Source: Candidatus Heimdallarchaeota archaeon B3_Heim (GTDB taxonomy: Archaea > Asgardarchaeota > Heimdallarchaeia > Hodarchaeales > Hodarchaeaceae). From it: 14,755 bases of DNA. Location: positions 1-14,755 of the forward strand of contig NJBF01000062.1 of NCBI GenBank assembly GCA_003144275.1. Reading direction: 5' to 3'. How positions within the stretch are numbered: the first letter of the stretch is position 1; each line of letters starts with the position of its first letter. Both the position numbers and the translations under genes were made by a program. Below the pieces are notes generated by a model that had not been told where the DNA came from, made no database searches, and saw nothing but the letters and a program-made list of their open reading frames with translations. Positions 3,690 through 12,928 of the stretch are shown one piece after another.

Positions 3690-4051
3690 CATGATCATTT
3701 TTGTCCGACAAAGCGAGATTACTCGTATTCGCTAACCTCTCCCTCTCTCTTACATTCATAAAAAGCCTCCCTCCATAACCTCTTCCAAGTGAGGTGATGA
3801 AAAGAAAAATTCCTAAATTCTTGGGTTTTATTCACTTGTAACTACGTGAGACGAGTTACCTGTCAAAGGCAAGAGAAGAATGACCCTTTAGGCGTGAGAG
3901 GTATTAGCGCTGGGGATATCAGCAGTAAGGATGCTTCAAGTAGTCCCAATGAATAGTAACCCTTTTAGTGGTGCTAATCTGCCGGATAGCGGATGTGTGA
4001 CTCATCCTGTCCAGAACTCTTTTCAAGAGTTGTCTGACAAATCTAGTCATG
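3690..4051 (+). mobile_element. 362-bp non-autonomous MITE-like element, copy 1
   Basis: Reverse complement of 12462-12823, identical by base-by-base reading. Imperfect terminal inverted repeats CATGATCATTTTTGTCCGACAA / CATGACTAGATTTGTCAGACAA (17/22). No long ORF. Orientation is arbitrary. Confidence 0.85.
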
Positions 4052-10080: not shown

Positions 10081-11223
10081 ATGGATACCTTTACGGGAGA
10101 GACACACATGGTTCTCGATCCTTTTTCTGTTAATAAACCCAATTTTCCGTCCAAAGCTGCTGTTGTAATTGATGGGGGCTATTGGCGTAAAGTGGTTGAA
10201 CATCTTGATTTAAAGTTCGTTGATCTAGTTGCACTAGCTAATGTTCTTTGTATGCCAGCCTATCGAATTAGAGCTTATTATTTTGACGGTAAAAAACAAC
10301 ATACACAATCTTTCCATGATAGCCTTCAGCTTCTTGATCGGTTTGAAGTCTACCTTGGAGAGCTCGTTCCAAGAGATATTACCTGTCCTCATTGTGAAAA
10401 GGTCATCACGACGCCTGTTCAGAAGAGGGTTGATGTTGCATTAGCCGTTGAACTTGTCCATCTAGCCACTACGGGTACCACTGATTTAATTGTCCTTATT
10501 GCCGGGGATCGTGATTTCATCCCTGCCATTGAAACTGCCAAACATGCCGGAGTGATAATTCGTCTTGTCCATGGTGCTCCTAAAACTGTTTCTAAGACGA
10601 TGTACAAGCTGGTAGATGAAAAGATAGAAATTACTATAGATTTTCTCAAAGAGAAGGGGATTCCTTACAAATTGCGAGGAGAAGCCGAACTCATCTCAAA
10701 GATTCAGAGTATTGAAGTAAAAAGTGAAAAGGAAAAACTCCGAATAGAGTCACATGTAAAACACATGTTGATCACTGTGGAATCGTTACTGTTAGAAATG
10801 TTAACACGTACTCCCAAAGAATCCATTCTTCTTAGTAGTCTTGGGATTGAGTTGTCGAAACGTGAACCTAACTGGAAAGAAAAAACCAAAATCAAACATC
10901 TCAAATCCCTCCTTAAATTAGAAGCCTCGAAATATAAACTCAAAGAACAGGATAAACAGGTTTATATTTCAACAATCAAAGCTATTCCAAAGGAGGATAT
11001 TGATTCTGCTAGAACATTCATATTACAAGTCGTCGAGAAATTCTTCCAAGAAAATAAATCTGATTCTATCTCATTACAACAATTAGGGTCTCTCTTATCC
11101 AGAAAGAATCCTGAGTGGAAAAAGAAGTATGAAGTCAAGCAACTCAGGACGGCGTTGAATACTTTGGAACAAGATCTGATTATATCTGGAACTAAACACA
11201 AGATTCGAATTAAACAGAAGTAA
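10081..11223 (+). CDS. NYN (LabA/DUF88, PIN-like) domain ribonuclease with two C-terminal LOTUS/OST-HTH-like repeats
   Basis: Catalytic-type acidic motifs IDGGY, QKRVDV and AGDRDFIP; C-terminal repeats LSSLGIELSKREPNW and LQQLGSLLSRKNPEW. Alternative start at ATG 10108. Confidence 0.9.
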   Translation: MDTFTGETHMVLDPFSVNKPNFPSKAAVVIDGGYWRKVVEHLDLKFVDLVALANVLCMPAYRIRAYYFDGKKQHTQSFHDSLQLLDRFEVYLGELVPRDITCPHCEKVITTPVQKRVDVALAVELVHLATTGTTDLIVLIAGDRDFIPAIETAKHAGVIIRLVHGAPKTVSKTMYKLVDEKIEITIDFLKEKGIPYKLRGEAELISKIQSIEVKSEKEKLRIESHVKHMLITVESLLLEMLTRTPKESILLSSLGIELSKREPNWKEKTKIKHLKSLLKLEASKYKLKEQDKQVYISTIKAIPKEDIDSARTFILQVVEKFFQENKSDSISLQQLGSLLSRKNPEWKKKYEVKQLRTALNTLEQDLIISGTKHKIRIKQK

Positions 11224-11352: not shown

Positions 11353-11424
11353 CATGACTAAATTTGTCAGACAACGCAGTAAAACCGCGTTCTGGACAGG
11401 ATGAGTCATATATCCGCTATCCGG
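11353..11424 (-). mobile_element. Diverged right-end fragment of the same MITE family (copy 3, truncated)
   Basis: Aligns to 12462-12531 with three substitutions plus a replaced hairpin segment. Begins at CATG. No matching left end was found before the oxidoreductase stop codon. Confidence 0.8.
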
Positions 11425-11493
11425 AAAAAACTAACTACTGACAAATACTGAAGAAAAGAATAAACAGAAAGAAATCCCCCTGGTTTTGATTCA

Positions 11494-12464
11494 TCAATCT
11501 ATGGCAATAACAACTCTACCTTTAGCGTGACCTGCTTCATAATATCGATGAGCATCTGCAGTCTGGCTTAATGGATACACTCGGTCAATAACTGATCTGA
11601 TCTTTCCTTCTTCAATCCATTCTCGTAATAAATTCAGATCACTGAAATCTCCGAGCATGCCGCCTTTCATTTTCTTGCTGGTAAATATACTAGTAATCAG
11701 TTGTAATCGATGTAATCTGGGATTAAAAAATCAACCGTTACGTAGATTCCTTTTTGAGAGAGAGAATTCTTACAATTCGAAAAATTGTTTTTTCCCACAG
11801 CATCAAATATGACATCATAAATTTGGCCATTTTTTGTAAAATCTTCTTTTGTATAATCAATCACGTAATCTGAACCGAGATCCTTTACCATATCTATATT
11901 ACTCGTACCGCATACACCAGTCACTTCAGTATCATATACTTTTTTAGCAATTTGGACAGCGAAGGTACCAATTCCTCCAGAGGCGCCATTGATAAGAACT
12001 TTCTGACCACCTTGAATTTGTGCTTTATCCTTGAGAGCTGCTAATGCGGGTATTGCACCTCCAACCACTGCTACTGCTTCTTGAAAGCTCATATTTTTTG
12101 GTTTTATTGCTATTCTATTATTTATAGGAAGGCGCATATATTCAGCACAAGCGCCTCCATTCATTGTTCCTCCATAAACTTGATCTCCTTCGTTAAATTG
12201 TGTTACTTTCCTCCCTACAGCGACTACTTCTCCAGAAAAATCCAGACCAACAACCTTCTTCCGTGGTTTTCTGATTCCAGTCGCTACTATTCTAAATACT
12301 CCAGATAATACCTTCCTACCACTCCGAAAAGTGATATCCAATGCTTGCATTGCAGAAGCGTAGTTTCTAATTAGGACTTCATTATCTTTAGGGATAGGTT
12401 TTTCTATGTCTTTCAGTTCAAGGACATCGGCGGTACCAAATTTTTCACATACTATTGCTTTCAT
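11494..12464 (-). pseudogene. NAD(P)-dependent oxidoreductase of the zinc-binding dehydrogenase (MDR/QOR-like) family, split by a 1-bp frameshift
   Basis: MKAIV...GLDFSGEV...VLINGASGGIGTFAVQIAK...YDVIFDAVG in one frame. The expected C-terminus (KIRSVIDRVYPLSQTADAHRYYEAGHAKGRVVI*) continues in the -1 frame to the stop at 11494. One extra T in the T6 run (11725-11730) gives a 323-aa protein. A sequencing error is possible. Confidence 0.8.
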
Positions 12465-12823
12465 GACTAGATTTGTCAGACAACTCTTGAAAAGAGTTCT
12501 GGACAGGATGAGTCACACATCCGCTATCCGGCAGATTAGCACCACTAAAAGGGTTACTATTCATTGGGACTACTTGAAGCATCCTTACTGCTGATATCCC
12601 CAGCGCTAATACCTCTCACGCCTAAAGGGTCATTCTTCTCTTGCCTTTGACAGGTAACTCGTCTCACGTAGTTACAAGTGAATAAAACCCAAGAATTTAG
12701 GAATTTTTCTTTTCATCACCTCACTTGGAAGAGGTTATGGAGGGAGGCTTTTTATGAATGTAAGAGAGAGGGAGAGGTTAGCGAATACGAGTAATCTCGC
12801 TTTGTCGGACAAAAATGATCATG
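12462..12823 (-). mobile_element. 362-bp MITE-like element, copy 2
   Basis: Inverted copy of 3690-4051. Its terminal CATG contains the ATG of the oxidoreductase gene. Confidence 0.85.
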
Positions 12824-12830
12824 GTAGTAA

Positions 12831-12838
12831 TCACCTTT
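12831..12838 (-). promoter_or_regulatory. Stranded Shine-Dalgarno sequence (AAAGGTGA) of the oxidoreductase gene
   Basis: Lies 8 nt upstream of an ATG in the CATG at the far end of copy 2. No other gene start follows it. Confidence 0.65.
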
Positions 12839-12928
12839 CAAATCACATTCTCACTTAATCCATCTTATTTCTTCAAAATAGTGTAACAATAGTTTATGAG
12901 TTTTTCTCCTATTTCGTGTTATTGATAT

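Follow-up and report, generated by a model that had tools for sequence, protein, structure and literature searches.

Insertion sequences of the IS630 type insert in CTAG and duplicate its central TA, and IS607 elements, according to their published description, are without terminal inverted repeats and cross over at GG. TnpB proteins in elements with symmetrical ends have been linked to DDE transposases, including that of IS630 (branch DDE-6), and solo TnpBs are mobilised in trans (Altae-Tran et al., PMC10691335). Here we analyze a stretch of 14,755 nt from Candidatus Heimdallarchaeota archaeon B3_Heim (contig NJBF01000062.1; hereafter the window), which contains two complete copies of a miniature inverted-repeat transposable element (MITE). 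One of them, copy 2, stands exactly at the start codon of a gene resembling zinc-type alcohol dehydrogenases and quinone oxidoreductases (the dehydrogenase-like gene). An earlier, sequence-only reading had taken CATG as the duplicated target of the element, and had proposed that an element inserted at C-ATG starts would act as a regulatory switch, while calling a preference for start codons unproven. Our analysis favors a simpler account: copy 2 is probably a TnpB-derived MITE at a CATG-like site, and its match with the start codon a by-product of the target motif and of selection.

The two copies are 100% identical over 362 bp and lie in inverted orientation (Table 1). There is no open reading frame (ORF) of at least 60 aa within these 362 bp, except a chance frame of 62 aa. 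In the genome to which the window belongs (G000; 3.95 Mb in 103 contigs, 36% G+C, 94% complete), the family gives 47 BLAST matches, full-length and partial, with 67-100% identity. The element has inverted ends of ~22 bp (CATGATCAtTTTTGTCCGACAA versus the reverse complement CATGACTAGATTTGTCAGACAA), with the family end motif CATGAYYANNTTTGTCNGACAA, and sub-terminal palindromes (TTTGTCNGACAA). The right ~115 nt of the MITE, and less clearly the left ~60-100 nt, are the ends of an element of ~1.42 kb, found in G000 at C61:10966-12383, C69:9356-10779 and C44:69039-70462 and on C57. These longer elements are bounded by the same inverted ends as the MITE (the repeats are perfect in the one on contig C69 of the congener G013), and their sole gene encodes a TnpB of 417 aa (Pfam OrfB_IS605 and Cas12f1-like_TNB). 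Homologues of this protein at 60-86% identity carry the NCBI name Candidatus Hodarchaeales archaeon. Alignment to solved TnpB-type nucleases suggests D (GIDLG), E (IETL) and D (NADYN) as its RuvC positions. A scan of the window and of one full insertion sequence at the Rfam gathering thresholds matched no family. Copy 2 is a non-autonomous, gene-less derivative, of the MITE or palindrome-associated transposable element (PATE) type, of a 1.42-kb Hodarchaeales insertion sequence that carries only tnpB.

Two side observations concern the same family. Three mini-elements of 33 nt (G000:C8:64499-64531, G000:C35:1462-1494 and G000:C50:11147-11179) consist of a left and a right end fused at the TTTGTCNGACAA palindromes (e.g., CATGATCAAATTTGTCTGACAATTTTAGTCATG), and are probably core deletions between both sub-terminal palindromes; a 52-bp relic of ISHwa23 (PMC3119063) is comparable. 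In run X5, which is labelled metatranscriptomic and flagged "probably DNA," a contig of 1763 nt with a depth of ~160 matches the right-end region of the family (window 12436-12719), and contigs of the flanking genes have a depth of at most 4. The deep contig is a relative's copy, and contig depth cannot rank expression, so that we regard it as a lead only.

Read on the minus strand, the junctions of copy 2 follow the order AAAGGTGA-TTACTAC-CATG-element-CATG-AAAGCAATAGTA, with the borders (written as slashes) ...tgAAAGGTGAttactacCATG/atcatttttgtccgacaaag...ttgtctgacaaatctagtCATG/aaagcaatagtatgtgaaaaa; over window 12860-12440 the strand reads ...tgAAAGGTGAttactacCATG/ATCATTTTTGTCCGACAAAG...GTTGTCTGACAAATCTAGTCATG/AAAGCAATAGTATGTGAAAAA. 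The corresponding empty allele is present in the best DNA match to this locus, from a marine-sediment metagenome (run X1). In this contig of 681 nt, window 12460 is followed directly by 12819, and the 358 nt in between (362 minus 4) are missing; the flanks of 145 and 171 bases differ from the window by 1 and 3 mismatches (~99% identity), and the junction reads TTACTAC-CATG-AAAG. The congener G002, whose orthologue of the dehydrogenase-like gene is 81% identical, also has an empty site, AAAGGTGATTACAAC-CATG-AAAGCTATAGTATGTG. Much of what the sequence-only reading had said about the two copies therefore holds. The junctions of copy 2 are present as described, and the empty allele has the single CATG that had been reconstructed. 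Once the element and one CATG are removed, AAAGGTGA lies 8 nt before the ATG, as expected of a ribosome binding site, and if both CATGs are removed, no in-frame start remains. The supposed natural N-terminus, MKAIV, is found in the sequence MKAIVCEKFG that opens the orthologues in G013, G002 and G006. Copy 1 is indeed not at a recognisable gene start, with outward ORFs of only 2 codons on either side. Because a near-identical empty allele occurs in a metagenome run, either the insertion of copy 2 is recent or the element is able to leave precisely; the coexistence of filled and empty alleles fits recent insertion as well as excision. The base before the ATG is not C in closer congeners (G-ATG in G013, A-ATG in G006), and the C is thus lineage-specific. 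For copy 1, the flanks are not present in G013, G002, G006, G020 or G003, which leaves these five genomes without an empty site for comparison.

Nearly every end of the family in G000 abuts CATG, and longer direct repeats are absent. The target rule could be read from five pairs of filled and empty sites. In pair (a), copy 2 of the window, the empty site is CATG, and in pair (b), a MITE at G013:C125, the empty site at G000:C74 (ccgccaCATGtgcg) also has one CATG. In pair (c), the MITE at G000:C44:7889 has the junctions TATG/ATCATT... and ...TTAGT/CATG, and the empty site in G013:C72 (flanks 95-96% identical) is TATG (gtttgTATGgaatt); the variant base, which derives from the host, is on the left-end side. 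In pair (d), the full-length element at G013:C69 reads, in the orientation of the locus, TATG/ACTAAA... and ...TTTAGT/CATG, and the empty site in G000:C55 is again TATG (cttcTATGttttt); tnpB is here on the minus strand, so that the variant base is on the right-end side. Pair (e), a MITE at G013:C31, has the junctions CATG...CATA, with CTTA at the empty site in G000:C88. A further copy, in another assembly, has the junctions TATG...CATA. Three more candidate pairs (G000:C85, C69:9356 and C21) are not clean empty sites, as the relatives hold other DNA or element remnants there, and the insertions at G013:C82 and G013:C70 are common to G000 and provide no empty site.

The simplest rule for these data assigns the outermost base on each side to the host, and to the element the G that follows AT at its left end and the C that precedes AT at its right end. 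The central AT itself occurs once in the empty site and at each of the two junctions of the filled one. The preferred site is CATG, and Y-AT-R (YATR) is tolerated. The idea of CATG as the duplicated target is not supported, since in two pairs TATG empty sites give TATG and CATG junctions, and only AT is shared; the site is better described as an "AT core in a CATG-like site" than as a "duplicated CATG." Two schemes were rejected. A 4-bp target duplication predicts TATG...TATG in pairs (c) and (d), and insertion 3' of a left-flank tetranucleotide, in the style of IS605, predicts an empty CATG in pair (d); neither was seen. The AT at both junctions may come from the duplication of a 2-bp staggered cut, from a conservative 2-bp crossover, or from an AT carried on one end of the element. 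At copy 2 the ATG is regenerated because the element ends in C, which is followed by AT and then by the G of the host. As a separate observation, the CATG that holds a MITE in G000:C85 is directly followed in G013 by ~1.2 kb without a match in G000 (G013:C83:20433-21637), and looks like a variable spot.

The enzyme that moves the family was sought in the same genomes. None of the three copy-rich genomes (G000, G013 and G020) has a Y1 (HUH) TnpA (PF01797); the sole full Y1 gene in the genus (in G018) lies beside a TnpB that is 27% identical to that of the family and without such ends. DDE_3 (PF13358) is also absent from these three genomes, and is present only in congeners with few or no copies. 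No IS607-type TnpA, a serine recombinase with an N-terminal HTH, was found in G000, whose single PF00239 match is a 183-aa protein of the resolvase type in which the catalytic domain comes first; a reverse transcriptase is encoded beside it. Among 22 congeners, elements with the same ends occur only in forms of ~0.36 kb and ~1.3-1.4 kb, with none longer, and two TnpB homologues in other assemblies have only host genes as neighbors. An apparent end pair spanning 2.6 kb (G000:C8:61897-64531) encloses the host gene of an 840-aa membrane protein, not a transposase. The other repeats of G000 comprise two insertion sequences with DDE_Tnp_1, an element of 1.6 kb and a second family with tnpB, and were discarded as a source, all having unrelated ends.

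Some of these loci deserve mention in their own right. The reverse transcriptase-like ORF of G000 (416 aa) is convergent with the adjacent gene for the resolvase/invertase-type serine recombinase (G000:C2:5532-7731). The 1.6-kb repeat (G000:C30:3818-5423 and C31:8610-10215) has inverted ends of 21 bp (GAGATTTCGYYTARATTGTTG) and a 464-aa ORF without Pfam match, and is possibly an insertion sequence with an unclassified transposase. The second tnpB-only family (~1.66 kb; G000:C38:57938-59598 and five similar places, about six copies) is unrelated to the first; its TnpB has 426 aa and an HTH_OrfB_IS605 domain, and is 23-25% identical to the TnpB of the first family.

We then have to explain why an element of this kind is found at a start codon. 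For a census of insertion sites, the empty site was rebuilt for 28 elements of G000 with both ends, and genes were called by a crude ORF rule. A site was classified as start-like when the junction ATG was in frame, at most 6 codons from the first start codon of the ORF, and with at least 100 codons downstream; as intragenic when inside any ORF of at least 100 aa; and as intergenic otherwise. The 28 insertions are divided into 5 start-like, 16 intergenic and 7 intragenic sites, versus 130 (3.25%), 414 and 3456 (86.4%), respectively, for 4000 random CATG sites of G000. The dominant signal is the depletion of intragenic insertions (25% versus 86% of CATG sites; P = 3e-13). Among CATG sites outside ORFs, 23.9% are start-like, and the proportion is the same for the insertions (5/21, 23.8%; P = 0.59). 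Nor is there an orientation bias: of the six start-associated sites, three have the right end next to the gene and three the left end. The possible preference for start codons thus disappears against the background of CATG frequency, the measure that the sequence-only reading had itself named, once selection is allowed for.

The sites themselves are diverse. A further 13 insertions, in G013, G020, G003, G004 and G018, comprise 1 start-like, 6 intergenic and 6 in-ORF sites, and several of the latter are within the last few codons of the ORF. Pfam supports true N-termini for an HhH-GPD protein (domain from residue 41, profile position 1) and a DUF998 protein (from residue 23, profile position 2), and identifies one "start-like" case as a C-terminal DUF362 fragment. 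The copy at G000:C76 splits surE 40 codons in. By the same crude calls, 255 of the 3157 ORFs of at least 100 aa in G000 (~8%) start with C-ATG.

We propose the following scenario. The family would integrate at CATG-like sites (YATR, mostly CATG), bringing with it the G of the left junction and the C of the right one and leaving AT at both, so that a true CATG target would read CATG again on both sides. Insertions within genes would then be removed by selection. Given that CATG contains ATG, that ~8% of long ORFs start with C-ATG, and that insertions in genes are lost, about a quarter of the surviving insertions are expected on start codons, as is seen. Repeated hits on start codons are therefore to be expected of an element that seeks CATG and is subject to purifying selection.

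For the gene downstream from copy 2, the ATG has stayed in place, and the Shine-Dalgarno (SD)-like motif and the promoter region have been pushed 358 nt further away. Indeed, the insertion puts 358 nt between AAAGGTGA and the ATG, and the bases that now precede the ATG (GACAAATCTAGTC) contain no SD-like motif. The motif is kept in G002 as AAAGGTGATTACAACC-ATG, and SD-like 5-mers are found upstream of 13% of the crude gene starts in G000, versus 2% at a control position. An ORF of 255 aa (11697-12464; MKAIVCEKFG...) begins with the ATG at 12464-12462, and the orthologues in G013 and G002 have 323 aa. Owing to a 1-nt deletion near 11724 (GATTTTT-TAATCC versus GATTTTTATAATCC in G013 and G002), the frame stops at 255 aa, and the C-terminal ~75 residues are encoded in a different frame. 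We infer that the gene is probably silenced or weakened. It had been claimed that the insertion leaves the ORF intact and exchanges its promoter and leader; the ATG is kept and the SD-like motif and upstream region are lost, in line with this claim, but the ORF carries a frameshift. The proposed regulatory switch finds no support at a gene that is itself frameshifted.

Several observations weigh against our account. Compared with CATG sites as a whole, start-like positions are about five times as frequent among the insertions (P = 0.002); we attribute this enrichment to selection against in-gene insertions, although there may be an intrinsic preference for gene 5' regions. The gene calls are crude (each ORF of at least 100 aa being taken from its first start codon), and the sample of insertions is small (28 plus 13). 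One of the five pairs, pair (e), is one base off the AT rule, with CTTA where CATA is expected; its outer bases fit, and since its flanks are 93-98% identical we take the inner mismatch as a later substitution. The mode of transposition and its enzyme are inferred, the searched genomes having yielded no transposase. As for the effect on the gene, the frameshift could be an assembly error: contigs from ~92%-identical relatives have the extra A near 11724, and none of the same-strain contigs listed for the locus covers this base. Moreover, the ORFs at two other start-site insertions are intact, equal in length to their empty-site orthologues (242/242 aa with 94% identity and 269/269 aa with 92% identity), so that an insertion at a start site is not necessarily inactivating.

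Other explanations can be set against the same evidence. It is possible, if on balance unlikely, that copy 2 owes its place to RNA-guided cleavage. Its right end would specify an omegaRNA with the first ~16-20 nt of the dehydrogenase-like gene as guide, and TnpB supplied from full-length copies would cut the empty allele, so that the filled allele would be more readily retained or spread; for the host, the position at a start codon would have no significance. G000 does contain full-length tnpB copies whose D/E/D triad appears intact, the right-end module is conserved in the MITEs, both alleles occur in metagenome data, and standalone omegaRNAs acting in trans have been described (PMC10691335). 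However, the C-AT before the flank is the same in filled and empty alleles, and a short target-adjacent motif there would expose the filled allele too.

We regard as improbable an incidental swap of promoters, in which the MITE would keep the promoter and leader of tnpB and would be transcribed through the omegaRNA scaffold out of its right end into abutting genes such as the dehydrogenase-like gene. Such transcription would fit with what the MITE retains of the insertion sequence (~60-100 nt on the left, ~115 nt on the right), with the SD-like GAGGTGATG ahead of a short ORF at the place of the tnpB start, and with the known TnpB guide RNA, which runs from inside the element into the right flank; the intact ORFs downstream of the two other start-site insertions would also agree. 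Yet a hairpin and T-run (AACTCTTTTCAAGAGTT) lie ~25 nt before the right end, the regenerated ATG is not preceded by an SD-like motif, the gene at the copy 2 locus is frameshifted, and start-site insertions next to the left end are as common as those next to the right end.

The reversible switch of the sequence-only reading, in which the element would target C-ATG starts, replace promoter and leader, and restore the gene by precise excision, appears very unlikely. The preserved ATG, the empty allele equal to the reconstruction, and the existence of both filled and empty alleles are what it calls for, and start-site insertions do recur (the dehydrogenase-like gene, HhH-GPD, DUF998, a 230-aa signal-peptide-like protein, and a 269-aa gene in G013), two of these genes keeping intact ORFs. 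Against it stand the lack of any excess over CATG sites outside ORFs, the unbiased orientation, the predominance of intergenic copies with some that split genes (e.g., surE), the frameshift in the dehydrogenase-like gene, and the absence of an SD-like motif before the ATG in either element end; furthermore, the empty allele may never have been inserted into. Finally, an assembly artefact that wrongly placed the repeat at the copy 2 site has a negligible probability: the genome is a metagenome assembly whose 103 contigs break at repeats, but at both junctions, which lie well within a contig of 14.7 kb, unique sequence runs into a complete element end, more than 25 sites follow the same junction rule, and the empty allele is shorter by exactly the element minus 4 nt.

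Table 1. Positions in the window of the MITE copies, their junctions and parts, and the dehydrogenase-like gene
Feature	Position	Strand	Description
MITE copy 2 with both junction CATGs	12462..12823	-	Net insert of 358 nt = 356 nt from G to C (12465-12820) + one AT
Left-end junction CATG	12820..12823	-	Outer C from host, AT shared core, G first base of element; rule read from filled/empty pairs
Right-end junction CATG	12462..12465	-	ATG 12464-12462 is the start codon of the dehydrogenase-like gene
MITE right-end module	12462..12576	-	83-85% identity to the right end of the 1.42-kb TnpB insertion sequence; presumed omegaRNA scaffold end, from known TnpB biology
Relic tnpB 3' codons PDSGCVTHPVQN within the right-end module	12496-12531	-	Last tnpB codons of the parent element
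MITE copy 1	3690..4051	+	Intergenic; same sequence as copy 2
Solo right-end fragment of the MITE family, 72 nt	11353..11424	-	Same orientation as copy 2; lies shortly after the end of the dehydrogenase-like gene
Zinc-type alcohol dehydrogenase/quinone oxidoreductase-like gene	11494..12464	-	Pfam ADH_N + ADH_zinc_N
SD-like motif AAAGGTGA	12831..12838	-	8 nt from ATG when empty, 370 nt in the filled allele

The surroundings of copy 2 show some further features. On the minus strand (window 11353-12823), the order is left end, MITE, right end, dehydrogenase-like gene, and the co-oriented 72-nt right-end fragment. The gene thereby has a left end (12823) on one side and, on the other, a spare right end (11353); it is also bracketed by two direct right-end repeats that could delete it. 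The DNA beyond its stop is without synteny in G013 or G002. Just upstream of the solo right-end fragment, window 10081-11223 (plus strand) encodes a protein of 380 aa, which has an NYN ribonuclease domain at its N-terminus and ends in a long coiled-coil tail.

The location of copy 2 at a start codon is ordinary for a target-specific MITE; what is unusual is the element family itself, which is not mentioned in PMC13343696 or PMC8813620. The evidence for an AT core from filled and empty pairs, the empty allele in a metagenome, and the statistics of insertion sites are new. Start-codon insertion is a by-product, not a design, and with a simple cause found, the coincidence need not be pursued as a new regulatory device. 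The profile of this Hodarchaeales family is sharpened (inverted ends, integration at the AT of CATG-like sites, an exact difference between filled and empty sites, evident recent activity, and no recognisable transposase), and this narrows the search for what mobilises TnpB-only elements. On the practical side, the C-ATG starts of G000 are open to such insertion, and annotators should expect true gene starts that abut the element. A broader scenario, which we consider highly improbable, would have an enzyme absent from the three copy-rich genomes move the TnpB family by AT exchange in CATG; the first codons of genes would repeatedly become omegaRNA guides, with the gene detached from its leader, and TnpB would bias the inheritance of the filled allele, or the bound complex would modulate the gene. 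If true, gene starts would show an on/off polymorphism guided by RNA, in archaea that are closely related to eukaryotes.

Among known systems, IS1341-type elements and PATEs (HqIRS of Haloquadratum, PMC3119063; standalone omegaRNAs, PMC10691335) are alike in being gene-less internal deletions of a tnpB-only insertion sequence, in which both ends and the tnpB-3'/right-end region are kept, and in having multiple copies, sub-terminal palindromes and no transposase gene nearby. Unlike these and other members of IS200/IS605, the copy 2 family has true inverted repeats of ~22 bp rather than asymmetric ends, has the dinucleotide at both junctions, shows host variant bases on either side instead of insertion 3' of a left-end tetranucleotide, and lacks Y1 TnpA in the three copy-rich genomes. 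With IS630/Tc1-mariner it shares a 4-bp palindromic target, a central dinucleotide on both sides and inverted ends, and TnpB can ride such transposons; however, its core is AT, not TA, and DDE_3 is missing from G000, G013 and G020. IS607 likewise carries TnpB, and the dinucleotide of the copy 2 family, identical at both junctions and single when empty, is what a conservative 2-bp crossover would give, with precise excision, but the copy 2 family differs in its inverted repeats, its AT core and the lack of an IS607-type TnpA in G000. The family thus resembles the trans-mobilised TnpBs with symmetrical ends, or a 2-bp crossover by a serine recombinase, and cannot be filed under either class. It is also comparable to target-specific bacterial MITEs that insert in or next to gene starts and change expression, such as the Correia elements of Neisseria (reviewed in PMC10969869), which are likewise short inverted-repeat elements with a fixed short target, mostly intergenic and sometimes fused to gene starts. 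In contrast to those, the outward promoter is only putative here, and the preferred target contains ATG, so that an insertion exactly at a start codon keeps the codon.

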